Below the pieces are notes generated by a model, which made no database searches, had not been told where the DNA came from, and saw nothing but the letters and a program-made list of their open reading frames with translations. The translations under genes and the position numbers were made by a program. Source: a virus (taxonomy: Duplodnaviria > Heunggongvirae > Uroviricota > Caudoviricetes). From it: DNA of 64,000 bases. This document shows, piece after piece, positions 33-62,193 of the stretch. The first letter of the stretch is position 1, and every line of letters starts with the position of its first letter. The DNA is taken from the IMG/VR virus record IMGVR_UViG_3300013902_000267; one strand, 5' to 3'.

Positions 33-103
33 TGGGATATAATGTAATGGTAACATGGAATACTCTGAATGTTCTCTTACTGGTTCGAATCCGGTTATCC
101 CAA
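33..103 (+). tRNA. tRNA-Gln (anticodon CUG)
   Basis: Manual cloverleaf fold. Acceptor TGGGATA/TATCCCA. D arm ATGT-AATGGTA-ACAT. Anticodon stem GAATA/TGTTC with loop CTCTGAA (U33, anticodon CTG, A37). T arm ACTGG-TTCGAAT-CCGGT. Discriminator A. Confidence 0.8.
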
Positions 104-222
104 CATATTCGTAATTTTTATTTTTTATTTTTTTTATTTTTAAAGGATTTATACATAAAGAGAAAAGGTTAATAAGATTTATTTCTTATTAACCTTTATT
201 ATTTTATTTCTTAAAATAAATA

Positions 223-942: not shown

Positions 943-1518
943 ATGAGTACACGTTGTAATTTACAAATACAAGATAATATAGAAGGAGAACATATATTAT
1001 ATCGACACTGTGATGGCATGCCAGATTCTGCAGGTAATGAAATAAAGAATTTCCTTAATGACTATGTAAAGAATACTAATACAACATATAATTATGAAGA
1101 AATTTCTAAAGGTATTATAGAACAGTTAGGATTTGAAGACGAAGGTAAAGTAGCAAAAGATATAAACTATTTTTATGAAATTGTTGTGCATCCAAATACA
1201 ATATTCTATACATGTTGGCATGTACCTGTATTTGGCAATTATGATATTGATAGTTTGGAGGATTATCCTGATTGTGAAGAACTAGAATGTGAGGAATTCA
1301 ATAAGTGTAATATACGAAAAGAAACTATTAATAAATCAACAGATGATATTGTTGATTCTAAAGAACTATTAAAATATGTAGATAGAAGAAATAAATTTCT
1401 TGATGAACTTTTAGATGAAGTTGAATTAAACGGTGGTATATCAAGAGATAAAATTATGAATATGTTAAAAGTAACATATGATCAGGGGTATAATTATAAT
1501 AGAGTAGATAATATTTAA
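943..1518 (+). CDS. hypothetical protein (191 aa)
   Basis: Uninterrupted ORF in a co-directional gene array. Cys/acidic-rich. Confidence 0.5.
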   Translation: MSTRCNLQIQDNIEGEHILYRHCDGMPDSAGNEIKNFLNDYVKNTNTTYNYEEISKGIIEQLGFEDEGKVAKDINYFYEIVVHPNTIFYTCWHVPVFGNYDIDSLEDYPDCEELECEEFNKCNIRKETINKSTDDIVDSKELLKYVDRRNKFLDELLDEVELNGGISRDKIMNMLKVTYDQGYNYNRVDNI

Positions 1519-1530
1519 TTTATAATTGTT

Positions 1531-1710
1531 ATGAAAAAATATTTAGAGATTCATTTGAAATATGAATTACCAGAAGATTATGATATTGATATTATAAATG
1601 ATGGTATTGATAATAAAGAAACATGGTCTTATATATTAGATTTAATGACAGATAATGAAAATAGAGAAAGTAAGGATACATGTAAATATACAACAGTTAA
1701 GATATACTAA
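1531..1710 (+). CDS. small hypothetical protein (59 aa), absent from the ORF track
   Basis: ATG at 1531 and TAA at 1708-1710. It fills the gap between flanking + strand genes. Confidence 0.35.
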   Translation: MKKYLEIHLKYELPEDYDIDIINDGIDNKETWSYILDLMTDNENRESKDTCKYTTVKIY

Positions 1711-1712
1711 AT

Positions 1713-2396
1713 ATGAAACATTACGATTCAATAGATAATATAAAATATAATACTGAATTAGTAGGAGAACAAGTATGGGCATTCAATAAATTAGATGGTC
1801 AGAATTTTTGTGCTAAATATTCTGTAAAGAAAAAGGAATTTACAAATTTTGGTTCAAGAAAATGTATGGTAGATGAGACATCAGAACAATTTGGTGATGC
1901 TGTACGTTATTTTAAATCACATAATTATTCATCTATATTAAGTAATATAGTTGAAAAACATAGAGTAAAGAAAGATATATTTTGTGGTGTTGATGAAATT
2001 ACATTTTTCTTCGAATGGTATGGAGAACATAGTTTTGCAGGATTTCATTCTGAAGAAGATAAAGATAATATGCATCTTGCATTAATTGATGTGTTCATCA
2101 AAAAGAAGGGATATATTGAACCAAAGATATATATGGATCTATTTAGAGATTGTGGAATAGAATTGCCGCAATTAGTTTATACGGGACCATTATCAAATGA
2201 TTTTATTAAAGATATTCAAGAAAATGACTGGACTGAACCAAATTGTAAATTTCCTTATGTAAAGGAAGGTGTTGTAATAAGGAGATCTACTATTTTAAAA
2301 GGACAACGAATGCCTAAAGTAAAAGTTAAAACAAAATGGTGGTTAACTGAATTACATAAAAGATATACAGAAGAAGAATGTAAATTATTAGAGTAA
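1713..2396 (+). CDS. minimal ATP-dependent polynucleotide (RNA) ligase-like nucleotidyltransferase
   Basis: Covalent nucleotidyltransferase motifs in the correct order: motif I NKLDGQN (KxDG), motif IV EGVVIRR, motif V KVKVKTK. Size 227 aa fits a stand-alone Rnl-type adenylyltransferase domain. Confidence 0.5.
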   Translation: MKHYDSIDNIKYNTELVGEQVWAFNKLDGQNFCAKYSVKKKEFTNFGSRKCMVDETSEQFGDAVRYFKSHNYSSILSNIVEKHRVKKDIFCGVDEITFFFEWYGEHSFAGFHSEEDKDNMHLALIDVFIKKKGYIEPKIYMDLFRDCGIELPQLVYTGPLSNDFIKDIQENDWTEPNCKFPYVKEGVVIRRSTILKGQRMPKVKVKTKWWLTELHKRYTEEECKLLE

Positions 2397-2398
2397 TT

Positions 2399-2851
2399 AT
2401 GACAACAGGTGAATTAGACGAAATTGTAAAAGATATTATTAATATTTTTGGTAAACATATAAAGCTTGCAAGTTTATCAGAAAAATCATATGCAACAGGA
2501 CATGAAAATTATTATGATATAGTGTTTGAGAATACTACATCATTTACTTCACGAATGTTCGGTTATCAATATAGAAAGTTCCTTAATAATCTTGCAAGTT
2601 TAACTAATGGTGAAACAAGAAAAACAAATTCATATAAAGGATTTGTATATTATTGGTTTCCTGGATTTATTTACAAGAAAAATAATTTAAGAATTGAATT
2701 TGGAAGGAAAGGTTGGAATAGACATAGTGGTGATGATTCAACTACATGTTTTTATATGACGACTAATAACAAATATATTATTGAAGAAATTGTTAATAAT
2801 ATATTAAGAGATAGAGATATACGTATTTTAAAGAAGAATGATTATGAATAA
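2399..2851 (+). CDS. hypothetical protein (150 aa)
   Basis: Uninterrupted ORF, translationally coupled to its neighbours. Confidence 0.45.
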   Translation: MTTGELDEIVKDIINIFGKHIKLASLSEKSYATGHENYYDIVFENTTSFTSRMFGYQYRKFLNNLASLTNGETRKTNSYKGFVYYWFPGFIYKKNNLRIEFGRKGWNRHSGDDSTTCFYMTTNNKYIIEEIVNNILRDRDIRILKKNDYE

Positions 2852-3491
2852 TAAACCAACATTAGTTGTTCCAAAAGGCAGACTATATAAAGGAATTAAA
2901 CATATGTTTAATTTATGTAATATTGATATGCCTGATGAGAATACTAGACAATATTATTTCCCTGATTGGAGTGATGATTGTGCATTATTTATAGCAAAAC
3001 CTAAAGCAATACCAGAATTAATTGCAAGTAAATTCTGTGAATTCAGTATGTGCGGATATGATATTATAAAGAATAGTGAATATGAAAATGATATAGAGCT
3101 CATTAAACACACAGGACTAAATAGAGTAAAAGTATGTTTAGCTTCACGATATAATATTGATGAATTGTGTCATATGAATAAACCAGTTATTTGTGCCACA
3201 GAATTTGATGTGTTAGCAAATCATTATTTTACAAAATTAGGAATTCCACATTATATATTAAATACAGCAGGTTCAACAGAAGGATATATTGATATTGGTG
3301 CAGATTGTATTATTGATGTTGTAGAAACAGGGAAAACACTTAAAGAAAATAATATTAATATATTAGATACACTGATTGATACTGATACATGTATATTTGA
3401 ACATGCATCATTAATGGATGCAATGTTACCATCAAATATACAAATAATTTATGATCAATGGATTAATAAGACATGGGAAACGAGAATGTAA
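2838..3491 (+). CDS. ATP phosphoribosyltransferase (HisG)-like protein
   Basis: N-terminal LVVPKGRL resembles the HisG IAxPKGRL block. The C-terminal block TAGSTEGYIDIGADCIIDVVETGKTLKENNI closely matches the HisG PRPP-binding signature (SVElAPxxGlADAIvDLVsTGxTLxaNgL). Confidence 0.55.
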   Translation: MIMNNKPTLVVPKGRLYKGIKHMFNLCNIDMPDENTRQYYFPDWSDDCALFIAKPKAIPELIASKFCEFSMCGYDIIKNSEYENDIELIKHTGLNRVKVCLASRYNIDELCHMNKPVICATEFDVLANHYFTKLGIPHYILNTAGSTEGYIDIGADCIIDVVETGKTLKENNINILDTLIDTDTCIFEHASLMDAMLPSNIQIIYDQWINKTWETRM

Positions 3492-3934
3492 AATATATAG
3501 TAGAATTTGATGGTAATGATGGCACAGGAAAAACTTATACGATAAAAGTATTATCAAAAGTTTTTTCTAACTGTATTTTTATAGATAGAGGATTATTCAG
3601 TAAAGCAACATTGCTATCAGACGAAAATGATGAAATGTATAAGTATATTGATGATAATATTGATATGAATAGAATTTATATTATATTGGATGATTATCCA
3701 GAACATTGTCAAATGCTTATAAAAAGAAGAGGAGATTCTATTGAAGAGAAATATCATACAATAGAAGATTTAGAGTATTATCGTAAACAATTTACAAACT
3801 TATATGGTTATTGTTGTAAAAAGAATTATGATAATGTTTATTTAGTTACACGATTATTACCAGATCATGTTCAGGTAATGATTGATATTATTAAGAAATT
3901 TACTAATTTTAATAAGGAAAATAATAATGAGTAA
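3473..3934 (+). CDS. P-loop (deoxy)nucleoside monophosphate kinase-like protein
   Basis: Walker A motif EFDGNDGTGKTY is of the thymidylate-kinase type (xDGxxGxGKT). 153 aa. Confidence 0.45.
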   Translation: MGNENVKYIVEFDGNDGTGKTYTIKVLSKVFSNCIFIDRGLFSKATLLSDENDEMYKYIDDNIDMNRIYIILDDYPEHCQMLIKRRGDSIEEKYHTIEDLEYYRKQFTNLYGYCCKKNYDNVYLVTRLLPDHVQVMIDIIKKFTNFNKENNNE

Positions 3935-4577
3935 AATAATTATTGGTACCAGTAATCCAGGTAAGATTAGAGAAATTGCATCTATTCTTTCACCATTAGG
4001 ATATGAGATTGAACCGCATGCATTGGATGTTGATGAAACAGGAAAGACTATTAAAGATAATGCTATTATAAAAGCAAAAGCATATAGTAATGTATTTCCA
4101 GATACTTATGTTATTGCAGAAGATAGTGGATTAGTCGTTCCTAAATTGAATAATCTTCCTGGTCCGTATTCAGCAAGATTTCATGAAATTACAATAGATG
4201 ATAATTTGAATGTTATAAATGTTCCACATGAAGAATTTACTACGGATAAATCTGAACATGATAAACTTAATAATGAGAAGTTGTTGAAGTATATTAAAGA
4301 TATTCCGTTTGATGAGCGTGCAGCATATTTTGAAGTATGTTTTGTCATTGCAAAGAATGGAATTATTCAAGAAACATTTAGTGGTTATTCATATGGTTAT
4401 ATAGCAGATGAATTACGTGGAACAAATGGATTTGGTTATGATCCATTGTTTATTGGTGAGAATACATTTGGTAAGACATATGCAGAACTAGATTCTGCAA
4501 GAAAGAATTTAAAGAGTCACAGAAAGCAAGCATTGAAACAATTGGGCCTTTGGGTTTCACAGAATATAGAGAATTAA
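3927..4577 (+). CDS. non-canonical purine NTP pyrophosphatase (ITPase, Ham1/RdgB family)
   Basis: Start is ATG 3927 (MSKIIIGTSNPGK), overlapping the upstream stop. Family motifs present: TSNPGK, AEDSGL, PGPYSARF, GFGYDPLF, KSHR. Confidence 0.75.
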   Translation: MSKIIIGTSNPGKIREIASILSPLGYEIEPHALDVDETGKTIKDNAIIKAKAYSNVFPDTYVIAEDSGLVVPKLNNLPGPYSARFHEITIDDNLNVINVPHEEFTTDKSEHDKLNNEKLLKYIKDIPFDERAAYFEVCFVIAKNGIIQETFSGYSYGYIADELRGTNGFGYDPLFIGENTFGKTYAELDSARKNLKSHRKQALKQLGLWVSQNIEN

Positions 4578-4583
4578 TAATAT

Positions 4584-5075
4584 ATGAAGAAATTTATTTT
4601 TCCAGGTTCATTTGATCCTTTTACAAATGGGCATAAAGCAATAGTAGATCAGACATATAAATTGTGTGATGAATTTATTATAGCATTAGCGACAAACTTA
4701 AAGAAAGGAGAAGGACTTATTAAACGTCCTGAGCGTATTAAGTTAATTAAAGAGATTTTTAAAGATTATCCGAATGTAAAGGTAATTGATATGACAGATA
4801 CCTTGATTTCTGATTATTGTAAAAAGAATGGAGTTTCTTATATTGTTAGAGGTATCAGAAATTCGGAAGACTTTACATATGAAAAATCATTGGCAGCTAC
4901 TAACCATTATTTGGCAGGTGTAGAAACAATGTTGGTAATGGGTTTTTGCGAACCATATAATATTGATATTTCATCTACATTCGTTAGAGAATTGGTACAT
5001 TATAAATTACCTATTGGTGAGTTTGTTCCACCAGTTGTTGAACAATATATTAAAGATAATAATTTAACATGGTAA
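4584..5075 (+). CDS. phosphopantetheine adenylyltransferase (CoaD)-like class I nucleotidyltransferase
   Basis: FPGSFDPFTNGH is the PPAT-type (T/H)xGH motif. VRGIRNSEDFTYEKSLAATN matches the CoaD RGLRxxxDFEYE block. An NMN/NaMN adenylyltransferase role cannot be excluded. Confidence 0.6.
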   Translation: MKKFIFPGSFDPFTNGHKAIVDQTYKLCDEFIIALATNLKKGEGLIKRPERIKLIKEIFKDYPNVKVIDMTDTLISDYCKKNGVSYIVRGIRNSEDFTYEKSLAATNHYLAGVETMLVMGFCEPYNIDISSTFVRELVHYKLPIGEFVPPVVEQYIKDNNLTW

Positions 5076-5938
5076 ATAAGATTCAAGAAGAAGATTTAAA
5101 AGCAGTTGAGTATTGTAAAACTGTATTATATCCTAAATGGAATATCAAAGATTTGTATTCTATAGATTTTGATACATTTAGAAAAATGCCGTTGGTTGTA
5201 GAAGGTGAAAGTAAAGAGATACGTGCATTGGATGATGATTATTGTATCATTTATTTTAAACCTACAATTTATTCATTTACATATAATAGAACTGGTATTG
5301 TAGAAGGAAGTAATATTCCACGTGTTCATGTAAGTAAAGTATTGTGTGAGTTACTTAAAGAAAATGGTATTAAACATGCATATCTAGATTATGGTGATGA
5401 ATTTGTATTAGCACGCATAATTAAAGATACACCTAATATTGAAGTTGTTGTAAAAGCAAATCATACAGGTACAAGTAAACATAGATATTTTGGTATGGGT
5501 AAATCACATGTAAGAATGTCACATCCATATTATTCGGGAATGAAAATTAAAGACATGGAACCATATCCAGCACCTATTGTAAGATTTGATTGGCGAAATC
5601 CATTTTGGGAACCAAATACACATAAGATGTTAGCTGATGAAGTTATGTGCGATGATCAAGCAGATTATTATATTGATGTTAAGAAAGCAAAGAAAACTGC
5701 AGCACTAACATTCAGTGTATTAAGTGATTTTCTTGCAAGTAAAGATATTGTTATTTATGATTTGTGTTTGTTTATATCAGAAGATGGTGAAACAGTATAT
5801 GGAGAAATTTCACCAGATTGTGGAAGATATAGACATTATGATTTAGGAAGTCTTGATAAGGATGTATGGCGTGCAGGAGGTTCATCAGATCAGGTATTGG
5901 AGAAGTGGAATTTACTGTATAAAATGATTACACAATAA
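5069..5938 (+). CDS. SAICAR synthetase (PurC)-like protein
   Basis: Colinear matches to PurC blocks: VVEGESKEIRALDDD (GKxKxVY...D), VVVKANHTGTSKHRYFG (VVRNRAAGSLVKRLG), and IYDLCLFISEDGETVYGEISPDCGRY (DFKLEFG...GDEFSPDxSR). Confidence 0.55.
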   Translation: MVNKIQEEDLKAVEYCKTVLYPKWNIKDLYSIDFDTFRKMPLVVEGESKEIRALDDDYCIIYFKPTIYSFTYNRTGIVEGSNIPRVHVSKVLCELLKENGIKHAYLDYGDEFVLARIIKDTPNIEVVVKANHTGTSKHRYFGMGKSHVRMSHPYYSGMKIKDMEPYPAPIVRFDWRNPFWEPNTHKMLADEVMCDDQADYYIDVKKAKKTAALTFSVLSDFLASKDIVIYDLCLFISEDGETVYGEISPDCGRYRHYDLGSLDKDVWRAGGSSDQVLEKWNLLYKMITQ

Positions 5939-5940
5939 TT

Positions 5941-6177
5941 ATGAGAAAATACGAATGTGAGATTGAAGATTATCATGGACATTTCTTTCACCATCGGTTT
6001 GAAGCAAACGATGATAATGAAGCGTTGGATAAAGCAAATGACCATGGTTATAGATATTATGCTAATGATGATACTTTATATTATGTAGAAGGAGATTATG
6101 TTGATTATAGTAATATAAGTACAGATCATTATAAAGAGAATATAAAGAAGTACCATCAAATATGGACTTCAATTTAA
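5941..6177 (+). CDS. hypothetical protein (78 aa)
   Basis: Uninterrupted ORF, start coupled to the upstream stop. Confidence 0.45.
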   Translation: MRKYECEIEDYHGHFFHHRFEANDDNEALDKANDHGYRYYANDDTLYYVEGDYVDYSNISTDHYKENIKKYHQIWTSI

Positions 6178-6183
6178 ATAGTA

Positions 6184-6216
6184 TATTTAAAAGTCACTAA
6201 AATAAAAACTTTAGTG
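6184..6216 (+). terminator. rho-independent terminator-like hairpin
   Basis: AAGTCACTAAA-ataaaaa-CTTTAGTGACTT followed by a T-run, directly after the 5941..6177 stop. Confidence 0.55.
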
Positions 6217-6263
6217 ACTTTTTCTATTATTATATATGAATTATAATTTAAACTATAAGATAA

Positions 6264-6647
6264 ATGAATTTAATTACAAATATAAAGAAATCATACAAAC
6301 ATATACCATATACATTTAAACATTGGAAGATGGTATTGAAATTAGAGAAGAAATATATAGGCTATTATAAATATCCTTTTCATGATTTAGATAAATTGTT
6401 CATGTATATATTCTTCCCTTATTTAGGAACAAAGATAATTCAGAAAATTCATACAAAGTTTGCTAATCATCATTTACGTAAATATAAGAAACATATGAAT
6501 TTTGATGAAGCTATTCTTGATTGGGAATCTGCAAGGTTTACAAAACCTGATAAACCATTGGATGCGTGGGATACATATCAAAAATATTTTACGGAATTTT
6601 CAAATGAACTTTTACCTATATTTGAAAAATTTAACTTGAAACATTAA
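6264..6647 (+). CDS. hypothetical protein (127 aa)
   Basis: Uninterrupted ORF. Confidence 0.45.
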   Translation: MNLITNIKKSYKHIPYTFKHWKMVLKLEKKYIGYYKYPFHDLDKLFMYIFFPYLGTKIIQKIHTKFANHHLRKYKKHMNFDEAILDWESARFTKPDKPLDAWDTYQKYFTEFSNELLPIFEKFNLKH

Positions 6648-6869
6648 AGACTTTATTTATATACGTTTATATAAAATACATAATGATTTTGTTTTAGAAG
6701 AACATTTATAAAAACTGTTTTAATAATTAGTGTAAAAGTGAGCACACAGAAAAAGAGAATTATGATAATTTCTGTAGAGCATGGATCAATACCAGCATTA
6801 TATAATGTACAGTTTATAGCAACGAATGTTCGAAATTTAAATTAACTATATGTCTAACATTCTTAATTT

Positions 6870-6939
6870 TTATTATTGGTAATAAGTGGCAAAACATGCT
6901 AGGAATAGTAAGTTATCGGTTCGAACCCGATATAATAAA
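6870..6939 (+). other. tRNA-like element (possible degenerate tRNA)
   Basis: Perfect 7-bp acceptor pairing TTATTAT/ATAATAA. Canonical T arm ATCGG-TTCGAAC-CCGAT. No convincing D arm or anticodon arm could be folded by eye. Confidence 0.3.
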
Positions 6940-7154
6940 GATAGAAAATGGATGATAGTTAATGATGCTAGATATAACGCTTATTATAGAAGTATTATAG
7001 GATTTGATTGAAGTGTGGATGTTTATTATACCTGTTCTATTTTTTAATAAAACAAATGTCCCTATAGATTGAAACATGGATTGAGATGAATATAATATGA
7101 TGTAATTTTAAGTTTGTTATATTTAGCATTAATTTTTTAATAAGAATTATTAAT

Positions 7155-7598
7155 ATGTATATGTTACGATTACAAGATTTACCAGATGGTGCAATAGTTC
7201 AATTATACTATAGGTCTTACGAAGAAGGATATGGACGTAGTAAACCAATGTTTAGAACATATATTATATCATTTAATGATAATACTATAATTTTTTCAAA
7301 TGTAGAATCTAAATACGAAGGTAATTTTAGTTTTTATTTAAATCAAACAGCACAATATATACATTTTGATCCAACAGACATAAATAATATTAATAATTTT
7401 GGATTTGATAAAAACTATATTATTGTATATGGAATTTATACATTTGATGATTCTAATAATAAAGTAAAAATGCCATATTCAATGAAAGGCAAGTATAAAA
7501 TGAACATATACAATACAAAATGTATATATCAAGAAGATATATCAAAAATTGCAGGGGATGAAATACAAGCTTACAATAGACGATACAAATATTATTAA
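7155..7598 (+). CDS. hypothetical protein (147 aa)
   Basis: Uninterrupted ORF. Confidence 0.45.
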   Translation: MYMLRLQDLPDGAIVQLYYRSYEEGYGRSKPMFRTYIISFNDNTIIFSNVESKYEGNFSFYLNQTAQYIHFDPTDINNINNFGFDKNYIIVYGIYTFDDSNNKVKMPYSMKGKYKMNIYNTKCIYQEDISKIAGDEIQAYNRRYKYY

Positions 7599-8109
7599 TA
7601 TAAACATATTACCCGGTGCAAAATTTGAATGTACAATATATAAAGGCAACGGACATTATGAAAGTTCATATGGAACTATTATGAAATGCAATGATAGATT
7701 AGTATTAATGTTGTGTGGACTTTTGTTTTTTGGATATGACTATCATTCTTGGAATAGTATTCATACTTATAATAAAAAACATTATCTGTATTATAATTAT
7801 TATAAGAATGATAACGATAGTATGAAAATAAAAGGTATTGTATGGTATTTAGATTTTGAAAAATATCCAGATAATTTTGGATTGTCTCCAAAATTATTTG
7901 TTGTTACTGATATATGGTTTAATAATATACATATATATAAAAGTAATTATATGTTGAAGAAATACAAACCAAGTTTAAAACCAAATTATATACATGAAGC
8001 AAATGAAAATTGTAAATGTTTTAAATATTGCGGTGGTAGTGTATATTCATCGGAAAAGTTAGAGGAATATGCAGAAGTAATACCTAATAAAAATTATAAT
8101 TATGAATAA
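7549..8109 (+). CDS. hypothetical protein (186 aa)
   Basis: Uninterrupted ORF overlapping its neighbours. Confidence 0.45.
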   Translation: MQGMKYKLTIDDTNIININILPGAKFECTIYKGNGHYESSYGTIMKCNDRLVLMLCGLLFFGYDYHSWNSIHTYNKKHYLYYNYYKNDNDSMKIKGIVWYLDFEKYPDNFGLSPKLFVVTDIWFNNIHIYKSNYMLKKYKPSLKPNYIHEANENCKCFKYCGGSVYSSEKLEEYAEVIPNKNYNYE

Positions 8110-9580
8110 TATTAAAGAAAATAATTTTTTCATTCCTAGAAAAATTGCTGTAGGATTTGTAAAAAGAGCAAATACATATTCAGGAAAGTTATCTTATATT
8201 ACTTATTATGATAATACTAATAAATTACGTAAGGACGTATCTTGGAATGGTTGGAGAGATAAAAATATAGAACCTGTATATACGGATAATATTCCAACAA
8301 CAGGTTTTATTATTAATAAACGTGCAGGAGGCGAAAAATGGGGATGGAACCAAAGAGCAACATATGCGCGTATATATGATCCAAGAGGGTTTGAATTTGA
8401 GATAACTATAGATAATCTTCTTTGGATTCTGGAATATACTAATTCAGAAAACAAGGAATTAAAAGGACAATTTGTATATAGTTGGTATGGAACTGAACTT
8501 GTACTTATGCCTATTGTTTCATCTGATTATGAAGAATCTAAACGTTTATCTGAACAACAATATAATAAAACATCGTTTAAAGAACGCGATTTAATTCCTG
8601 GAACACTTTATAAAATGAAAGGTAAGGAATTAAATGAATTGGTATATATTGGTAAAGTAAAAGTATCTACTGAATTCAATATGTCTTATGTTAATAAATT
8701 AGCATTTGTACCTATACAGGATTCTTGGAAGTTATATTCACATTATGATAAAAATATCAACAGATCTGATTTCTTTATATTTAAAAGTGTTTCGTCTGTT
8801 ATAGCAGAAATGCAACAAAATTATTTTAGTGACGATATTGTAAAAGAATATCTACATAGATTTGATATGTGCGCGTATTCATATAATTTCTGGAATAATT
8901 TTGGTAATTTCATTGATAAATTTGTTTCTGACCATCCATGTATAATGAATGATTATAAAAAACCATATAAGATAGAATATAATAGATATAGCACAGAGAA
9001 GAATAATTATAATAATATTATTGATAAATTCGAATATAATGGTATAAAGTTAGATTCATTAAGAATTATTCCTGAATGGTTAATCCAAACAGACAGAGAA
9101 CACATATTTTATGAAAATACAAGTGTATTAAAATCAGTTATATCCGATGATGGTAAATCCGTATTGATAAAAGATCAATATCCTACTATAGAAAAGATTA
9201 ATACATTTAATAGGATTGTATATAAACGAATGTATGATTTCATGAATATTGATTTAAATACAAATACATTTAATAAAATATGTGATCCCGGATTGTGGGA
9301 TGAATATAGAGGTCATCATTCTTGCGAAGTATCAAATATTATATATAAGCATCCATCAGAAACTACAGATGTTCAGAAAGCAAGAGAAATTAATACTCAG
9401 GTTTCATTAAATGATAACAGAACATTCTTATATTATATAACGAAGGATAATTATATATCTATATCATTACAGGAAATGATACGGAATCATCGTTATATGA
9501 AATTCGGTTTCTCGAATGGTATAGATGAGAATAAATGGGTAACATTAGATGTAATATTGTTACCAAAAAAGATTAAGTAA
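8102..9580 (+). CDS. hypothetical protein (492 aa)
   Basis: Long uninterrupted ORF with no in-frame TAG. Confidence 0.5.
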   Translation: MNNIKENNFFIPRKIAVGFVKRANTYSGKLSYITYYDNTNKLRKDVSWNGWRDKNIEPVYTDNIPTTGFIINKRAGGEKWGWNQRATYARIYDPRGFEFEITIDNLLWILEYTNSENKELKGQFVYSWYGTELVLMPIVSSDYEESKRLSEQQYNKTSFKERDLIPGTLYKMKGKELNELVYIGKVKVSTEFNMSYVNKLAFVPIQDSWKLYSHYDKNINRSDFFIFKSVSSVIAEMQQNYFSDDIVKEYLHRFDMCAYSYNFWNNFGNFIDKFVSDHPCIMNDYKKPYKIEYNRYSTEKNNYNNIIDKFEYNGIKLDSLRIIPEWLIQTDREHIFYENTSVLKSVISDDGKSVLIKDQYPTIEKINTFNRIVYKRMYDFMNIDLNTNTFNKICDPGLWDEYRGHHSCEVSNIIYKHPSETTDVQKAREINTQVSLNDNRTFLYYITKDNYISISLQEMIRNHRYMKFGFSNGIDENKWVTLDVILLPKKIK

Positions 9581-10232: not shown

Positions 10233-10270
10233 TCTTTTTAATAAATATATAAAATATAAAAGAAGTATTA

Positions 10271-10863
10271 TGCCAACAATGATGCCATTAATGGATAAAG
10301 ATACCGTAAGATATATAACATAGAATATTACACCAGAAGAAACTAAATATGTAGCTGATATAAAATCTACTATTGATGATACAAAGTGTGAACCAGAGAA
10401 ATGTGATGATGTTATATATCTTACTAAGATTATCGCTTTTTATACTAAATTTACAAATCTTGCAAATACAACACCTAATAATCAATATAAGATGCATATT
10501 CAAGATTTTATGTGGAGATTACAGCAATATAAGGAAGATATATTTGAAGTTGTTCAATCTATCATAGGAGTTTTAAATGGTTCCGATATTACAAAGATTG
10601 AATTACCTATAAGTGATAATCCATTAGAGATTATAAATGAATTAAAACAATGTGTACAAAATTGGTTTACACTTCATACAGATGATATTGAATATGAAGG
10701 CGCTAGATCATTAACTAGTTCATTCCTTTCTGTAATTCATAAGTTTGTTTACCTTTTTAGATTAGATAAATGCTCGACTGCTGATTATGGTCAGGATTAG
10801 AAATTACCAAATCCTGATGCAGGATTATGTGGAGTAAACGGAGCATATGCAGTAAATTTTTAA
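10271..10863 (+). CDS. hypothetical protein with in-frame TAG codons; needs a -1 shift at a T-run (10438-10441) for continuity
   Basis: Frame from ATG 10271 reads MPTMMPLMDKDTVRYITQNIT... up to the T5 run. The -1 frame continues ...YTKFTNLANTTPNNQYKMHIQDF... through TAG 10798 to TAA 10861-10863. Confidence 0.35.
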
Positions 10864-10874
10864 TATGATATAAT

Positions 10875-11828
10875 ATGAATCCTATAAATCAACCATCATC
10901 TAGAAATTACAATATCAATGGTAGTACAAGAAATAATGGGTTCTTATATAAAATTATGCCTTTATCATTTAATTTACAATAGAGAGGAAATGATTTTAAA
11001 GTTAAAAAATACAATAAGTGTAAATTTAATATCGGCGATAATGTAAGAGGATTGTGTTTGGAAGATAAGAAAGAACATTCAGGACGAATTACTAATATCT
11101 TATACAGTACAAATACAGAAGTTCCTTATTTAGTTTATATCATTGATAATAAGACAAGATAGAAATTATCATTAAACTTTAGTTCGCTAGAATTTAATAA
11201 TTCTAAAATTGATGAGTCATATGGGTTTGATGTTGCCATTAAACTATATGAAACATTAAATAAAGATAAATATAATAAATTAAAACTTTAGAATAGAATG
11301 GTAAATTCAATAAAAGTTTTACTTGAAGAATATTTTAATAATACAGAACAAATGGATATGTTGTTAAATGATTATTAGAAACAACAGAAAAAAGCAAGTA
11401 AAGCATATGATTCACGTCAAGAGTTTTTAAAATCAATATTAGGTAAAGTAACATATAACAAATATCAAAATAAAGGTATGTTTGCTCCTATTCCTTTATC
11501 TGCATTGCATTTAACATTCGAAGATTTTTATTATTTGTTTCCAGAGAATAATATTAAGATGAGACCAATGGATAATGAAGCAGGTGTAGAGAAAGTAAAG
11601 AAACTTATTGCACGTATTAATAAGGAATATCCTAATAACGGTATTAGATTGTTAGATAATGGTGTTTCTTATACATTAAGTTCAAATCTTGTATTTAAGA
11701 GATTAGATAATATAATTGATTTTTTATAGATAATTCAGAAAAATGTTTTGAGGATTTCATCTGATAAAACAAATCCAACAGTTAATTGGAAGGCGATGAT
11801 AAAGAAATTCAGAAATTATCTACGATAA
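10875..11828 (+). CDS. hypothetical protein (317 aa), 5 in-frame TAG
   Basis: Single frame from ATG 10875 to TAA 11826-11828 with no TAA or TGA. It joins ORF-track fragment 11478..11729 to its upstream and downstream pieces. Confidence 0.55.
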
Positions 11829-11861
11829 TCAAATAAGTAAAATAAATTAATTAAAATAATA

Positions 11862-12365
11862 ATGATGATAACTACAAACATAAGTAACATTCCAGACGCA
11901 TGGGATGGTTATTTTGAACAATAGGTTAATAAGTTCACGCCTTCTGTTGAAGTTCCTAAGCCTTGGAGACATCCGGTTGGACCTGAACCTATGATGAAAC
12001 CTTGCAAGCATCATAAGACATAGTTTATTATAAAACATAAACCTGCTACATTACCAAATGGACCAGAACATGGATGTAACGTATGTGATCCATATCATCC
12101 AAATTTGTATGATCATATGAATATGCCTTGTTTTAATCAACATAAACCATATGGTATCGCTACTAATAGATTAATGAGTCCATTTGAAGATGATGATAGA
12201 CCTGATTGGCATGAATTCCATGCTAAGAATCGTAAACCTATGATGTTTGAAGAAGTTATAGATGAAAATGGTTGTTCACATGGTCCTCATGGAACAATTA
12301 ATGTTAGACCAGTTGAACCTGCTGATGATGAAGCAGATGAGATTGAAGATGAAGTAACAGTTTAA
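11862..12365 (+). CDS. Cys/His/Pro-rich small protein (167 aa), 2 in-frame TAG
   Basis: Continuous frame containing ORF 12105..12365. Acidic C-terminal tail. Motifs HGCNVCDPYHPN and CSHGPHG. Confidence 0.5.
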
Positions 12366-12461
12366 AATGAAAATTAATTAATGATAGAAATATAAATTAT
12401 GCAAACATCAAGTAAAGTTTCATACGATAATTGGAGTGATTGGAATTTAGGAAATTAGATA

Positions 12462-13166
12462 ATGAATATAAGACCTGTTGGTACATATTGCTTCTGTGAA
12501 CATCATCATTGTCACCATCATCATCCTTGTGATTGTGTAGATTGTGAATTCTCAGAATCATATATTAAACCAGAATCTTGTTGTCATCATCATCCGCATC
12601 CACCAGTACCATGTCCACCACATCATTGTGATTGTCATGATCCACATTTATTTCCAATTGATCAAGATAATGATGGATTTGTAGAAAGTGATATGATTCA
12701 TAAACATCCAGAACCATATATTCCAGAACCATTACCAGGAGAAATTGGAGATAAAGAAGATGATACAACAAATAGAATGGAAGTAGGTGACGAAGTTGAT
12801 GATATTGATGATTCAACAAATTATTATGGTTCAAATTTAGTTGTAAGTATTCCTAAAGAAATTCAACCAGTAGAAACATCAGATGAAATTGATTCTATTT
12901 TAGATGAAGATACACAAGATGATATGGTAACTACTGATGAAGATGGTTATCATACATTAAGTGATGAAGTTCCAGCAGAAGAAGATAATTGGGAAACATC
13001 AAAAATGATTGATACTAATACATCTAAAATTATTGAAGAAACACCAGTTCCTGAATAGGAATTAAAGGAAGTTGAAACTATTCCATCTGTAGAATCAGTA
13101 GAAGAGAAACCCACACGTGGACGTAGAAGAGTTAATCGTGGAGGAAGACGTAAAAAAGAAGAATAA
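12462..13166 (+). CDS. His/Cys-rich acidic protein (234 aa), reads through TAG 13056
   Basis: CHHHHPCDCVDC...CCHHHPHPPVPCPPHHCDCHDPH metal-binding-like clusters. The frame continues past TAG to TAA 13164-13166 and adds a basic RGRRRVNRGGRRKKEE tail. Confidence 0.55.
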
Positions 13167-13182
13167 TTTTTATTCTATATAT

Positions 13183-13225
13183 AATAGAAAAGAGACTTAG
13201 AACAAAAATACTAAGTCTCTTTTTA
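13183..13225. terminator. bidirectional terminator hairpin between convergent genes
   Basis: AGAGACTTAG-aacaaaaatac-TAAGTCTCT flanked by A/T runs on both sides. Confidence 0.5.
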
Positions 13226-13262
13226 TTTTTTATAAACATTCACATTTAATTTTACTATAAAA

Positions 13263-13889
13263 TTAAAGCATACATTCATCCCACCAGTCAGCGCGGAAAG
13301 TCATATCACAAGACATCAAATCTGTACTGTCATAATTAAGTGTAGGACCAGGTACACCTGTTGTAGGGAAAATGTAATAGAATACCCATTGCCAATATGG
13401 ATTACCAGCACGATCTTGCATAGTAATAGTCATTGATGGCGCCACGTAATCTTTCTTAAGGCCTTCACGACCTGTAAGAGGATCATAAATAAGGTCAACC
13501 CATTCACGAAGGAACTTATATGTGTAGTTCTCAGGTGAACCGTTATCATATGAAAGGTTAAGGTTAAAGTGTAATGTCAAGTCGACATTAGTTCTATCTG
13601 GTTTTGCACCAGCGAATGAACGTTGTGCAAATTTATACTTTTGCTCTGTTGCGTTAGCACCAAATGAAGTAGAAATCTGACCAACACTTTGTACACCTTC
13701 AAGAATAATATTCAAACGTTCATCATCTGTTGTATCAACCATACCTTGAGGACAACTTAATTGAACAGTAAACAAGTTCAAATATATAGGTTCCCATAAT
13801 GAGGTAGATACACGGCTATTTCTAAAATGTGATAATCCTAACAAACCTGGAGATTTCTTAGGTAAAGTAGGTCCATTTGTTACTGCCAT
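13263..13889 (-). CDS. hypothetical protein (208 aa), possible virion or tail-tube-like
   Basis: Uninterrupted ORF on the opposite strand inside the + late module. It is visibly GC-richer than its surroundings and has no TAG. Weak resemblance to phage tube proteins only. Confidence 0.4.
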   Translation of the reverse strand: MAVTNGPTLPKKSPGLLGLSHFRNSRVSTSLWEPIYLNLFTVQLSCPQGMVDTTDDERLNIILEGVQSVGQISTSFGANATEQKYKFAQRSFAGAKPDRTNVDLTLHFNLNLSYDNGSPENYTYKFLREWVDLIYDPLTGREGLKKDYVAPSMTITMQDRAGNPYWQWVFYYIFPTTGVPGPTLNYDSTDLMSCDMTFRADWWDECML

Positions 13890-14042
13890 ATTATTATTAA
13901 AGTATATTTTATTTTATTTATCTGTGAAAAATAGGTAGATTAAATGTAGACAAAAATATTTTTTTATAGTATAAATTAAGAATTTAAAAAAAATAGAGAT
14001 AAATAATTAAGTTCAAAAAATAAATTTTAAATAAAGAAGAAA

Positions 14043-14219
14043 ATGAAGAAGATTTTATTTGTACTTGCTGCTGTTGTAACAATGAGTTTCGCTTCTTGTG
14101 GTAACAAGACTACTACATGTGGAACAGCAAATGATTCAACTGCAACAGATACTACAGTTGTTGATTCTACAGCTACAGATTCAACTGCAGCTGATTCTAC
14201 AGTTTGTCCTATGTAATTC
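14043..14219 (+). CDS. small lipoprotein (58 aa)
   Basis: MKKILFVLAAVVTMSFASCGN has a signal peptide and lipobox Cys, then Thr/Asp/Ser repeats. The ORF-track call 14027..14221(-) is the antisense frame of this gene. Confidence 0.45.
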
Positions 14220-14389
14220 ATAAGACAAACTTTATTTTAGAGAAGATTATTGTGTAATTAAAATATAACCTAATATAAGGTTTATATTAAACTAATTTTA
14301 GAGATATACTAAATATATTCATTTATATTTGGTATATCTTTTTTTATTTAATAAATATTTAAAATTTATTTAACTGAATTATATAATAT

Positions 14390-15286
14390 ATGGCAACATG
14401 GAATCAAGCAGTTCAATAGATGGGTAAGTTTTATCAATAGAATATACATACATATCAAGGAGGTAAATCAGGACATGCGACAGGTGCTAGACGTTCTTAT
14501 TCATGTCCTTTAGTTGGACACAGTGTAGGAGATGATTGTTCAGGATTTACTTCTGCGTGTTTATAGTTATTTGGAGCATTTCCAGGCTCATATATTGTTT
14601 CATCTAGTGGTTTTGCATCAACATCTGGTGCAACAGCCGCATATTTAAGAAAAGCTGGATTTTCACCGTTAAGATATATTAGTTACTCATCTTTATAGCC
14701 ATATGATATTGTTGCAAGAAATGGACATGTTGAAGTATTTTGTGGTATGAAGGGAAGTTCACCAATGTCATACGCATGGGGAAATATTCATGATGGCATA
14801 AATGGACATGTTGGTATGCCATGTTGGTTTTCTAAACAGTCTTATTCTATTGTATGGAGAAATTCTGGTGTAAGTATAGATACACCATTAGATTTTTCTT
14901 CAGTGTCTGGCGGTTCATTACAACAATAGATGAATTCTGGATATGGTACAGGTGGAACATTAAATGGGTAGACAGGTTCATAGTTTAATTATACATCAAA
15001 TACATATCCTGTTCATGATGAATATGAAACTATTTCATCTGGTAATGGTTCAAAATCTGTATTTGAAATTGTAGGTGAAAATACATTACGTATGGCATAT
15101 ACAAATTCATCATATATACAACAATTAGATTCATCTAATTATTAGTTAAAAAATACTCGTATATATTCAACTAATGATGCATCTATAATATTAGATGAAT
15201 TATCAATACCATTAGATCCATTTGATACGAGTGTTAATACATTAGATTCAAGTGTTATTGATAATTCAGTTAAAACAAATAATTAA
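14390..15286 (+). CDS. NlpC/P60-family cell-wall peptidase (298 aa), about 9 in-frame TAG
   Basis: Continuous frame from ATG 14390 to TAA 15284-15286. It carries the catalytic Cys motif GDDCSGFTS (DCSGF) and the His motif NGHVEVF. Its C-terminal module is shared with the next gene. Confidence 0.6.
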
Positions 15287-15292
15287 TAATAT

Positions 15293-16333
15293 ATGGCTGG
15301 CAAGAAATTACTTAATGGTGTTTATATAACAAAGAAAATAATGGAAGCTTTTAATCTTAAAGATTATCAGGCTGCTGGATTTGCTGGTTGTTTTATGGAA
15401 GAATCTGGTTGTGATCCCGGTGCATATAATGCCGCTGAAAAATCTGGAAGATTTAAAGGTTCATCAGCGAACGGTGCAGGTTATGGTGCAGGTCTTGCAT
15501 AGTGGTCTAATGCATGGAAACGGTAGATATAGAGATAGTTTAATAATTCAAGGCCTATAGAAAATTGGACATTAGATTAGCAAATAGCTATTGTTACTAA
15601 AGGCTGTTCATAGTCTTTTGTAAATTTATTAAGAAAATGTACATCAGTAGGTTAGTCTACAGATATTGTTTTAAGAGGATATGAAAATGGTTCTGCAGGT
15701 AAAGGTACTAAATTACGTTCATAGCAATCAATGAAAGCATATACGTGGTGTAAGACATCATATATGGCAGATGGTAGTAGACGTACGTTTAGTGATGGAT
15801 ATATTGGTGCATTAACATGTAGAACATCATGGGCTAATGCAGTTTTAAGTAAAATGGGATCAGTTAATCTTGCAGATTTATCCGGATTAGGAACAGAAGT
15901 AGGTGGAGGATTAGGTGATGATGGCTCTTTTGGTTCTACTGGTGGAGGAGGAACTGGAGATTCAAACGCATATCCTGTTCATGATGAATATGAAACATTT
16001 ACTGGACAAGGTGGAAATATATTTGCAAATGCAAAAGATAATGCATTTCAATTAGCTGCTGATGCATCAAAATCTAAATTTTCATCTAAAGATTCTGAAG
16101 CATCTAAGCATACACGTATATATTCTACAAATGATTCTTGTATTGTTTTAGATGAATTAAGTATACCATATGATCCAAATGATCCAACTATTGAATATGC
16201 AAATCAAAATGTAAAAGCGGAAGATGTTAAGAAAGATACATCTACTAATGCAAAAGATAATACTAAAGACACATCTACAAATAAAAGTACAAATAAATCT
16301 AATACTACAAAAAAGACAACTAAATCTAAATAA
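15293..16333 (+). CDS. lysozyme-like (phage tail lysozyme-type) protein (346 aa), multiple in-frame TAG
   Basis: N-terminus AGFAGCFMEESGCDPGAYNAAEKSGRF...GYGAGLAQWS resembles the phage tail-lysozyme GNxxxESxxxP block. ORFs 15293..15502 and 15731..16333 are in the same frame and are joined only through TAG codons. Thr/Lys-rich tail. Confidence 0.5.
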
Positions 16334-16335
16334 TT

Positions 16336-19300
16336 ATGATTACAATAAATGGTATTAAATATTTAAAAAAAGGAGAGACATCAAATGATAAAACAATAAC
16401 GCATTATTATTATACAGATTCATTAAAGAAAACTTATAACATAATATATAATGGCAAAAATGCTAAATTATATACAGATACTAAAGTATACAAGGATTCT
16501 GATACAAATTAGATTATAAAGAAAGATTTCTTTAATTATACTATTGATTACGGAACAGGAAAATATGGAGGTGTTTGTTATTCAAAATCAGATGAAGATA
16601 AGATATTAGGTATGGTCGATTCTGATAGTAATATAGATGGAAGTTCTAATGGAGATTCTACAACTGATGGTGATAATAGTTCAAACTCTGGAAATAATTC
16701 TGATGATTCTGATAATAATGACGGTAATAGTTCAAATAATGGTAATGGAACAGGTGATGATACAAATGATTCTGATAGTAATGGATCTGGTAATAAAGAT
16801 ACTAATAATAAAGGTATATTTGAGGATTCAATGGGTAATAAAGATAAAGATAATCCTCGAAGTTCATTACCATTAGGAGCAGATATTAAAGATCCTGATG
16901 TTACAGGTTTTAGCATTGATGAAGTAACAGCGCCACATCCACGAGAAAACAATTGGTATAATAAAGGTTCTGTTTGTCCAATAATACGTATAAATGATCA
17001 TTATTTTTCTGATACTGAAATATAGCATTTTTCTATGGAAACTGGATATTATAAGAATTTTTATGATTATCAAGTATACCAAGCACCGTTAACAGGTGTT
17101 TTACCAACTATGAGGCTTATTGTTACAACAACAGATCCAGGTTTATTAAAGAAAGATTTTATAAAGCAAGGTGATAGATGTAATGTATTTTTCTAGAGTA
17201 ATCATTCTATGATTAAATCTATGAGATGTGATTTCAGAATTACTAATGTTGTAACAGATTAGTTAGATTAGACGTAGTATTAGAAATATCAAACATAGAT
17301 TATAACAGGTGAACTTTATGTCCCGGATTTAAGAAATGAAGAAACTCGTTATAATTTTAATGGTTCATCAAGAGATGCTATGATGGATTTGGCAAAGAGA
17401 TTAAGATTAAGTTTTTTCTTTTGTGATCCTGATGATACTAATGATAAAATGGTTTGGTGTAATTGTAAAACACCTGAAATGTTCATTCATGATTTAACAA
17501 CGCATGCATGGAAAAATTCTATATCATTCTTTGAATCTTGGATTGATCCACGTTATGGATTATCTTTTATGAATATTAATAGATTATTAGGTGAAGATGG
17601 ATTTGATGAATCAATAGATATGACATTCTGGACTAATACATTTATTAATAATAGATCAGTTGATGGAAAATCTGCAAATGAAACAGATACAGAATAGAAA
17701 AATAGTACACATATTCAAACAAAATGTTTTACTAATATTATTAATGATAATGAATCTGCTACAGTATATCATGTTAATAGTTGGAGATTGGTTAATAATG
17801 CATAGGAAATACAAGATTTTGTTGGATTGAATTGTAAAATGCAATATTCATCTGTTAATCCTGGATTATTATCAGATGAGAATAATAATCCAAATTATAG
17901 TGTAGAATTTTCATTATGTTTAAATAGAACTAAATTTGATCCAACTAAAAAGGATAATGATTTTTATGTATTATTAGGACCTGGTAGAAATATGACATAT
18001 GCGAGTGGCGATGCCGCCATGGGAACATCTGAAACACAATCTTCAAATAAAAATGAACCTGAACAAGTTACAAATCAAATGTCTGATGGTGATGCAGATG
18101 CAATGGATAGTACAGGAAATAATATGATGTCTTCTGGTAATACACATCAATTTTATGAAGTTGCTTATGAACATAATATGAGAAATTTACTATAGTTATA
18201 GAAATAGTATTTACTTGTAGAATTAAATGGTGCAAACTTAAGTATTGTTCGCGGTGAAAAAATGCCTATTGTATTAATGGATTTAAATAAAGCAGAACAA
18301 GCTATTAGAACTAGTCAAGCACGTACAAAAATAGAAGAATGTATGTATGAAGCTGAATCCGGTTGGTATATAATTGATGGTATTGAATGGGTTTTTGATC
18401 CTGATAATGATTAGGGACAAGGTACAAACTGGCGAACTAATGTGAAATTAGTTAGAAGAGAATGGCCAATACCATCAAAAATAAAAGATGCAAATGGTAA
18501 TACTGTTTCAAAAAATGTCGCAAATAGTATTGTTTTGGTAGATATTGGAAACGGACAATAGATAAGAATGGCTTATTATGATGCAGTAAAGAAATATAGT
18601 TAGGAAATAAAAAATGGTGATGTCAAAATATTAGGTGGAACAACATCTGAAGACGCAGTTGTAATTGGTCAGAAAAAACAAAACATATCTTCAACTAATG
18701 ATGAATAGAATTCAGATGATCTAGAAGAAAGTGGTAAATTATATACTGCAAATGGTGTAGAGACTGTAAGTGCAGTTAATTTTAATCTTGATTTAATGGA
18801 TCAATATGTAAAAGATTCTGATTATGTTGGTTAGTCTACAATACCTTTAACTGGTTTGAAAGATTTTATGAAAAATATTTATAAAACAATATTATCTGAA
18901 TCCGATAATAAATGTAAATTGGTATCTGGAAGACGGTGGGCAGTAGATGAATATGGTAATAAGGTAAATGGAAATGCGTTTGTAAAGAAATATGATTATT
19001 ATAAATGTATGAATGCTATAGGTGAAGTAATGTATTTTAAAAAAAATAATTCAAGTCATTTATATGGTGAAGCTATTGATATTATTAATAATGGTATAGA
19101 TTTTACTGAACTTATGACTAATGTAATAATGAAATCACCTGCGATATTAAAATTATTTTATGATAATGGTGTTTCTGCTTATATAGAGCAAGCAAAGGAT
19201 GATACAGGCGCAACTACTAAACATTACCATATTGGAACTGATACAATAAAACAACGAGAATTTTGGGAATCTGTTAAAGCTATATTAGGTTCTGATATGA

Positions 19301-62187: not shown

Positions 62188-62193
62188 ATATAG

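Follow-up and report, generated by a model that had tools for sequence, protein, structure and literature searches.

A stretch of 64,000 nucleotides from the IMG/VR virus record IMGVR_UViG_3300013902_000267 (the window) carries seven adjacent genes, g1 to g7, at positions 1713–5938 of the + strand. Judged by its g7 protein, which is 100% identical to that of Prevotella phage Lak-B7/B8 (~550 kb) and 92.7–99.7% identical across all 15 Lak GenBank records, the DNA is that of a Lak-B7/B8-type megaphage. Four of the genes very probably form one functional module; they encode an ATP phosphoribosyltransferase (HisG, g3), a mini P-loop protein (g4), a Ham1-type pyrophosphatase (g5) and a protein with the fold of SAICAR synthetase (PurC, g7). 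Their synteny and fusions in other genomes indicate that they are parts of one pathway running through steps 1–4 of histidine biosynthesis. As an explanation of the whole we favour, at a probability of about 0.42, a mobile histidine branch of four to seven enzymes that would make a coformycin-like nucleotide. An earlier sequence-only reading had the genes cooperating towards a non-canonical nucleotide; synteny and fusions uphold this for HisG, the P-loop protein, Ham1 and the PurC-like protein, and not for the RNA ligase (g1), g2 or the phosphopantetheine adenylyltransferase (PPAT, CoaD, g6). The histidine-pathway logic (HisG, HisE, HisI and HisA, then a PurC homologue) was missed by that reading and is the key to the cluster.

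The neighbourhoods of g7 and its relatives were mapped at 69 loci (numbered with an L below) from viral and genome collections, 59 of which are non-redundant. Custom domain hidden Markov models (HMMs) replaced single-linkage clustering of open reading frames (ORFs), which fusion proteins and antisense shadow ORFs corrupted. Within 4 kb of the PurC-like gene, HisG is present at 31/59 non-redundant loci, the P-loop protein at 31/59, Ham1 at 28/59 and HisA/HisI at 16/59. Where the PurC-like protein shares 44% identity or more with that of Lak, HisG is near it at 20 of the 25 non-redundant loci; this proximity, and the fusion of the components in many genomes, takes the association beyond chance. 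A recurrent order, in which a HisA–HisI–HisE fusion is followed by HisG, the PurC-like protein, Ham1 and the P-loop protein, is seen in Candidate Phyla Radiation (CPR) bacteria, Myxococcota, Planctomycetia, Oligoflexia and others. All three Pfam domains are matched in the HisA–HisI–HisE fusion. HisH/HisF, HisB, HisC and HisD are never linked to the module. At two loci (L005, 6598–7926; L006, 323–1651) a 442-aa protein with no Pfam match lies directly before the PurC-like gene; the contig is phage-like (453 kb) and has no HisG near the module, and this protein may stand in for the missing step.

Many of the components are joined in single polypeptides. The P-loop protein is fused to HisG (L002, L026, L029; Lak-like Wendovervirus relatives), to Ham1 (L004, L014, L025) and, in eight proteins, to the PurC-like protein. 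Fusions of PurC-like, Ham1 and P-loop parts occur in L033 and L037, the former confirmed by Pfam, and Ham1 is also fused to the PurC-like protein in L043. In other members the PurC-like domain is joined to guanylate kinase, which comes from a second nucleoside monophosphate (NMP) kinase family. On contigs of giant-virus metagenome-assembled genomes (GVMAGs; L015–L023, about 6560–8970) HisG, P-loop and PurC-like parts form proteins of ~800 aa, the PurC-like part being 32–37% identical to Lak, and neither HisA/HisI/HisE nor Ham1 lies near these giant-virus fusions. Finally, a 481-kb IMG/VR viral contig (L024, 7233–10919) encodes a single 1228-aa protein made up of P-loop, PurC-like, HisA, HisI, HisE and HisG domains. 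These were identified by Pfam except for the PurC-like part, which is supported by tblastn and the family HMM.

Subsets of the module are present in at least four independent huge-phage lineages, and it is hosted by other huge phages, giant-virus MAGs, CPR bacteria, Myxococcota, Bdellovibrionota and Planctomycetes. A motif search among 185,579 species representatives returned 45 loci, sporadically distributed. Such a sporadic spread through viruses, episymbionts and predators, suggestive of horizontal transfer, suits an accessory 'weapon' more than it does core metabolism. PADLOC placed none of the module proteins in known defence families, and no riboswitch was found in the 18 bacterial loci searched. 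No published account of the module in phages, giant viruses or CPR bacteria was found, and the Lak papers are silent on it. In the literature found, therefore, the module is undescribed; it would represent a coformycin-type histidine branch without the reductase, but with a kinase and an inosine triphosphate pyrophosphatase (ITPase), in viruses and parasitic or predatory bacteria.

The entry enzyme of the module, g3 (2838–3491, + strand, 217 aa), is a short-form HisG. It scores 106.6 bits against TIGR00070 (cut-off 75.75) and matches PF01634 with an E-value of 2e-24. PDB HisG chains are matched at E 4e-13, covering the full short-form chains and residues ~9–186 of a 289-aa long-form chain. Only the catalytic domains are present and, because the C-terminal regulatory (histidine-binding) domain is absent, the enzyme is presumably feedback-insensitive. 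The closest relatives of g3 are all phage-type HisG proteins and none is host-type; some are fused to Thymidylate_kin. The module thus resembles steps 1–4 of histidine biosynthesis, with g3 a HisG equivalog and a HisA–HisI–HisE fusion in module relatives. It differs in that a PurC-fold protein replaces the enzyme that consumes phosphoribulosylformimino-aminoimidazole-carboxamide ribotide (PRFAR), and in its short HisG, beside which no HisZ was seen.

The neighbouring gene g4 (3473–3934, + strand) encodes the mini P-loop protein, a core module component of 153 aa. Its first description as NMP-kinase-like holds only by way of its family, since g4 alone matched no family in profile searches and it is the family profile that is thymidylate-kinase-like. 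This profile matches the PDB thymidylate kinase 2pbr with an E-value of 9e-13, skipping thymidylate kinase residues ~23–75 (~50 residues, the NMP-binding region), and 15/17 family members match Pfam Thymidylate_kin. The Walker A motif, the DR motif and the lid region are kept, and no full-length match to thymidylate kinase or deoxynucleoside kinase that includes the NMP-binding segment exceeded the Pfam gathering score. Its sequence is that of a putative truncated NMP kinase of the thymidylate-kinase/deoxynucleoside-kinase type. The product of g5 (3927–4577, + strand), a frequent module component, is a Ham1/RdgB non-canonical purine nucleoside triphosphate (NTP) pyrophosphatase, or ITPase (PF01725, E 6.5e-48; TIGR00042, 157.5 bits against a cut-off of 145.35). 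Translation most likely starts at the ATG at 3927 rather than the upstream TTG at 3882. The catalytic motif is intact (AEDSGL, containing EDSGL) and keeps the catalytic Asp, as expected of an active-type ITPase, whereas the inactive sensor KomB is without this residue (10.1101/2024.12.20.629578). Ham1 was also considered as a substitute for HisE and set aside, as most bacterial modules carry both.

The PurC-like protein g7 (5069–5938, + strand) belongs to a distinct and highly conserved family. It matches SAICAR_synt (PF01259) with an E-value of 6.7e-10 and 39.6 bits, where the Pfam threshold is 20. The AlphaFold2 model (pLDDT 89.2) has the SAICAR-synthetase fold, in that its top 38 Foldseek PDB matches are all SAICAR synthetases/PAICS (TM 0.80, 17–27% identity). 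Against the PurC equivalog model TIGR00081, however, g7 gives 26.7 bits, far under the cut-off of 189.9. The profile and structure searches called for by the sequence-only reading therefore confirm the HisG family for g3, and for g7 they confirm the PurC family and fold, but not a canonical PurC.

With canonical PurC g7 shares the fold, the glycine-rich loop and the GS, R and LDKDxxR motifs, which we take to be the ribotide-binding motifs of PurC. It differs in new invariant motifs, KPTIYSF, H(S/T)GTSKHRY, VRFDWRNP and DLCLF, and ~90 positions are invariant in an alignment of 25 diverse members of the family. The positions of the canonical D-x-K-x-E and (A/G)-D-E motifs are occupied by D231-L-C233-L-F235 and G245-E246, again invariant in the 25 members, so that acidic residues of both motifs are replaced by C233, F235 and G245. 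In E. coli PurC these acidic residues are presumably the Mg-ATP ligands. Because they are lost, the role of ATP-dependent amide ligase first proposed for g7 is unlikely, and the family is never beside pur de novo genes in the loci mapped. On sequence, g7 is a member of a distinct family and not a canonical PurC. Homologues that are 55–76% identical occur on phage-like contigs of 0.2–0.66 Mb and in MAGs of Myxococcales, Blastocatellia, Armatimonadetes and Peribacteria. No actinobacterial protein is among the g7 homologues listed, or among those found with a distant Bradyrhizobium homologue as the query. This distant member (L058, 2629–11494, on the chromosome of Bradyrhizobium genosp. A) is 37% identical and keeps the family motifs; its neighbours are a PhyH dioxygenase, a MetRS-like protein, an aminotransferase, a HAD phosphatase and a P450. 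The trio of MetRS-like protein, aminotransferase and SAICAR-synthetase homologue recalls the formycin/pyrazofurin–coformycin clusters (10.1101/728154).

The only characterised pathways that unite dedicated homologues of HisG, HisA and SAICAR synthetase are those for 1,3-diazepine inhibitors of adenosine deaminase, and in the pentostatin, coformycin and adechlorin clusters homologues of HisG (PenA/AdeC), HisA (AdeK) and SAICAR synthetase (PenC/CofB/AdeA) together form the signature (PMC12648386, PMC13055916, 10.1101/728154). It is from this sole precedent that we infer a coformycin-type branch. In both cases a dedicated HisG and the histidine steps to PRFAR feed an enzyme of the SAICAR-synthetase fold. 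As in the pen cluster, Lak has just the entry and branch enzymes, and HisE, HisI and HisA would be borrowed from primary metabolism. As with CofB, PenC and AdeA, HisG adjoins the PurC-like gene in Lak and in the 31 loci counted above and HisA/HisI in 16, and all are fused in the 1228-aa protein. The retained ribotide motifs and the lost acidic residues of g7 also fit CofB-like chemistry broadly. In a 2020 PNAS paper Ren et al. are said to have found that CofB turns PRFAR into 8-ketocoformycin 5'-phosphate, freeing ammonia and erythronate-4-phosphate and using no ATP, and that CofA afterwards reduces the ketone. The module differs from the coformycin clusters in that no reductase was seen and there is no phosphatase; the mini thymidylate-kinase-like protein and Ham1 are found instead, and the end product is therefore probably a nucleotide rather than a nucleoside. 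It is found, moreover, in viruses, CPR and predatory bacteria and not in actinomycetes, and 'protégé' antibiotic genes are absent.

In the proposed pathway the short, feedback-insensitive HisG would join ATP (or dATP) to phosphoribosyl pyrophosphate (PRPP). HisE, HisI and HisA, which are encoded within the module in most of the bacteria and some of the phages, would take the product on to PRFAR. By tblastn neither HisA nor HisI has a match in any Lak genome, and the Lak version is therefore a reduced one that would need the HisE, HisI and HisA of its Prevotella host. The PurC-like protein, proposed as the committed enzyme of the branch, would bind the aminoimidazole-carboxamide ribotide (AICAR) half of PRFAR and, by analogy with CofB, cyclise PRFAR to a 1,3-diazepine (8-oxo-coformycin-type) purine 5'-monophosphate. 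The P-loop kinase would phosphorylate a nucleoside monophosphate of the pathway, this product being the simplest choice, and Ham1 would clear (d)ITP-like triphosphates, including any (d)ITP still formed. We consider it probable that the pathway branches at ProFAR or PRFAR; the diazepine product, which is suggested by analogy, is put forward more tentatively.

The purpose of such a product would be to block adenine-nucleotide deaminases, either those of host purine catabolism or immune enzymes of the adenosine deaminase (ADA) family, such as RdrB of RADAR and KomA of Kongming. It is doubtful that deaminase inhibition is what the module is for. RdrB converts ATP and dATP to ITP and dITP and does not accept AMP or adenosine (PMC9994260), while the ADA-family enzyme KomA generates a dITP signal (10.1101/2024.12.20.629578). 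That RdrB takes only the triphosphates ATP and dATP would provide a rationale for the kinase. The inosine theme is supported by the catalytic Asp kept in Lak Ham1 and by endonuclease V, which is inserted inside the module in two phages (L004 and L014). There is a likeness here to T5 Dmp acting against Kongming, as an active ITPase, together with endonuclease V in the related phages, would remove (d)ITP and inosine (PMC9994260; 10.1101/2024.12.20.629578); unlike Dmp, no Ham1 is known to act against RADAR or Kongming. A broader proposal is that the module is a mobile pathway, common to huge phages, giant viruses of eukaryotes, CPR episymbionts and predatory bacteria, which hijacks the histidine enzymes of the host and whose di- or triphosphate ring-expanded purine inhibits ADA-family deaminases including RdrB and KomA, with ITPase and in some cases endonuclease V removing inosine nucleotides; this is rather unlikely. 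No precedent for a virus making a small-molecule deaminase inhibitor was found in the literature.

Several observations weigh against a coformycin-type branch. No short-chain dehydrogenase, as used at the CofA/PenB step, was seen among the flanking ORFs scanned (Pfam for L001–L008, and selected loci), a scan that was not a systematic search of the 59 loci. A tblastn search of the FabG type gave no Prevotella-phage records among the tallied matches, which is a weak negative. It is this NADPH-dependent CofA/PenB step that creates the inhibitory 8-hydroxyl, and to our knowledge the 8-oxo compound is neither a transition-state analogue nor an established inhibitor. Were the kinase and the NTP pyrophosphatase to act on one nucleotide, the two would run a futile cycle; one or both of the assigned roles must therefore be wrong or incomplete. 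Short-form HisG normally requires the HisRS-like partner HisZ for full activity, and no HisZ was seen with that of the module. The likeness to CofB and PenC is drawn from descriptions of the clusters and not from sequence comparison. Furthermore, Ham1 and the module are also present in bacterial chromosomes, where a role in anti-defence makes no sense.

A final point of this kind is that four CPR genomes have adenylosuccinate synthetase (PurA) as an immediate neighbour of the module (L034, 3798–5117; L036, 4676–6016; L038, 158–1621; L039, 6661–7932), in L039 between HisG and the PurC-like gene. The two of these ORFs that were scanned match the PurA Pfam family with E-values of 1e-150 (L034) and 1e-142 (L039). 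This adjacency hints at ordinary purine interconversion or salvage, in which ATP and PRPP would be taken through PRFAR to AICAR or IMP without a deaminase, Ham1 would turn ITP into IMP and the kinase would re-phosphorylate NMPs, to the benefit of organisms and viruses living on scavenged nucleotides. CPR bacteria, in which the module occurs, are generally without de novo purine synthesis, histidine biosynthesis is known to yield AICAR from ATP, and Ham1 and an NMP kinase are ordinary enzymes of the nucleotide pool. At least five enzymes consuming PRPP would, however, be a costly replacement for one deaminase, and the 45 sporadic loci are unlike the distribution of a core route. The PurC-like family is also without the residues for ATP-dependent ligation, the four PurA-bearing loci come from related lineages, and Lak DNA has a GC content of ~26%, so that the phage would want more A and not less. 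We regard salvage as improbable.

The product might instead be a modified purine (d)NTP for the virus's own DNA or RNA. T4 (dCTPase, dCMP hydroxymethylase and dNMP kinase) and the Z-genome phages (PurZ, MazZ and DatZ) have pathways for non-canonical nucleotides that follow this logic, with an NTP pyrophosphatase, modification at the monophosphate level and a dedicated NMP kinase. The module resembles them as a phage operon in which a recruited homologue of a purine-metabolism enzyme is accompanied by an NMP kinase and an NTP pyrophosphatase. Ham1 and the NMP-kinase-like protein stand alongside base-remodelling enzymes, the two NMP-kinase families fused to the PurC-like enzyme (thymidylate-kinase-like and guanylate kinase) would suit the same end, and RNA repair genes are near the module in three phage lineages. 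The chemistry differs, in that N1 would be phosphoribosylated and the ring opened, where those pathways substitute at C5 or C2; cellular genomes have the module too, and there is no sign of incorporation into DNA. A diazepine base would have no Watson–Crick face, the module is chromosomal in many bacteria, and no dedicated polymerase or enzyme excluding canonical dNTPs is linked to it. Lak genomes were, in addition, assembled from ordinary short reads with no anomaly reported (PMC6784885). A modified base is accordingly a decidedly unlikely outcome.

The remaining three genes of the seven stand apart from the module. The protein encoded by g1 (1713–2396, + strand, 227 aa) is a small nucleotidyltransferase of the RNA-ligase family, matching RNA_ligase PF09414 (E 2e-8, 34.9 bits, gathering score 27) and phrog_548 (E 2.9e-12). 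Its KxDG motif is NKLDGQ, the C-terminal domain is absent, no PDB relative was found by sequence search and its dN/dS is 0.12. The 150-aa protein of g2 (2399–2851, + strand) is unassigned to any family and has only nine relatives among 1.84 billion representatives; its gene overlaps the start of HisG by 14 nt. The g6 protein (4584–5075, + strand) is a PPAT, scoring 132.5 bits with TIGR01510 (equivalog cut-off 103.3), and its best 34 PDB matches are all PPAT, with E-values to 3.6e-28. The TxGH and ISST motifs are seen in the translation as FTNGH and ISSTFVRE, and dN/dS is 0.026. The labels HisG, ITPase, PPAT and RNA ligase were thus all borne out by profile searches above the cut-offs. The claim that all seven genes serve one pathway is not supported, as none of the non-Lak copies of the module mapped has g1, g2 or CoaD. 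They are treated here as co-transcribed neighbours with separate functions, CoaD having been inserted in the module in Lak phages only.

This bears on the explanation that there is no shared pathway at all and that seven independent auxiliary metabolic genes are neighbours by chance in a gene-dense megaphage. Megaphages are rich in nucleotide-metabolism genes (PMC6784885), and with no conserved link to the others outside Lak, a chance neighbourhood is the default for the RNA ligase, g2 and CoaD. For HisG, the P-loop protein, Ham1 and the PurC-like protein it is refuted by several independent fusions and by a synteny that spans phyla and viruses, and as an account of the whole cluster it is scarcely credible.

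Genes related to g1 and g6 in function lie elsewhere. The window contains a second, larger RNA ligase (PF09414; 42044–43585, – strand), a Thg1-like tRNA-His guanylyltransferase (46126–46938, – strand), a metallophosphoesterase (38203–38982, – strand) and a DHHA1-domain protein (19468–20433, – strand). Unrelated huge phages likewise have RNA repair genes flanking the module, namely Tpt1 and RlaP in L004 and Thg1 and RtcB in L005. Downstream of the L005 module, at a distance of 1–3 kb, are CoaBC (DFP and Flavoprotein domains) and a TANGO2-like gene (11754–13063). Genes of the CoA pathway are hence beside the module in two unrelated phages, with CoaD inside it in Lak and CoaBC in L005.

The sequence-only reading had also suggested a metabolite related to NAD or ADP-ribose, tied to a NAMPT gene elsewhere in the window; HisG, PPAT and NAMPT would then make or restore such a metabolite against NAD-depleting defence. 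Phage pathways for NAD reconstitution (NARP1/NARP2) are known, and PPAT and the nicotinamide mononucleotide (NMN) adenylyltransferase NMNAT belong to the same adenylyltransferase superfamily. The NAMPT is real (55328–56911, – strand, NAPRTase and NAMPT_N domains), but it lies 50 kb away on the other strand. Its neighbour (54265–55302, – strand) is a protein with a P-loop (AAA_33) and an NT5C-like phosphatase part, and no NMN adenylyltransferase was identified beside NAMPT in the window. The adenylyltransferase had been taken for an enzyme of an NAD-type pathway; g6 passes the CoaD equivalog cut-off and fails all models of NMNAT and of its nicotinic acid mononucleotide counterpart NaMNAT, reaching 12–44 bits where the cut-offs are 112–409. 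CoaD was considered as the NMNAT partner of NAMPT and rejected on these scores and the distance, and a NARP2-type pairing of the two enzymes is thus not present. Outside Lak, CoaD and NAMPT are absent from all copies of the module, whereas HisA, HisI and HisE are present. An NAD-related product is very improbable.

In Lak the seven ORFs are, as first described, co-directional and overlapping, with junctions between neighbours that are overlaps of 7–19 nt or gaps of 2–6 nt. The packed block is in fact longer and extends from 943 to 6177. Two upstream + strand ORFs (943–1518, 191 aa; 1531–1710, 59 aa) are packed against the cluster; they are without an assigned function, matched no Pfam or PHROG family and, judging by their spacing, would share its transcript. 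A 78-aa ORF that matches no family and has no assigned function, g8 (5941–6177, + strand), begins 2 nt past g7. It is followed by a terminator-like hairpin (6189–6222, + strand) with a 13-bp stem and a T-rich tail, which is the probable end of the transcription unit. Terminator-like sites number 5 in 7.3 kb where 0.9 are expected; the promoter scan gave 71 sites against 69 expected and is thus uninformative. Every Lak genome found (15 GenBank records; loci L009, L010 and L013) has the seven genes intact, and dN/dS values of 0.03–0.37 between Lak clades show all seven to be under purifying selection.

All seven ORFs end in TAA and none contains an in-frame TAG. Lak phages recode TAG, and the + strand genes at 10270–19425 have 2–19 in-frame TAGs each. 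A TAG-free cluster (943–6177) is compatible with expression that precedes the code switch. The window carries tRNA-Gln(CTG) at 33–104 (+ strand) and tRNA-Lys(TTT) at 62193–62266 (– strand), and no TAG-suppressor tRNA was found in it. Between tRNA-Gln and a divergent gene (223–846) there is a hairpin (164–197) with a 14-bp stem and T-rich tails on both strands, which looks like a bidirectional terminator. Elsewhere, the N-terminus (IFIREIVSNAVDATEKL) of a 678-aa protein (32780–34816, – strand) resembles the Hsp90/HtpG ATPase, as judged by eye from the translation.

The mapping defines an uncharacterised PurC-fold family with dozens of invariant residues that extends from megaphages to giant viruses and candidate-phyla bacteria, and it gives the 'partial histidine pathway' of such genomes a testable function. 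Commercially available substrates allow an in vitro test of each proposed step, and the 1228-aa protein of L024, which would hold the whole proposed pathway in one polypeptide, is an ideal candidate for biochemistry. Should the reaction of the PurC-like enzyme differ from that of CofB, the pathway would be entirely new. If the coformycin-type reading is true, the module would be a natural source of phosphorylated coformycin-like compounds, which are potential probes for deaminase-based immunity, and if its product also inhibits immune deaminases, it would be the first virus-encoded synthesis of an enzyme-inhibitor metabolite as counter-defence. Viruses would then go beyond degrading or sponging immune signals and would make drug-like analogues of nucleotides, with a few enzymes of their own (two or three) inserted into an amino-acid pathway of the host.

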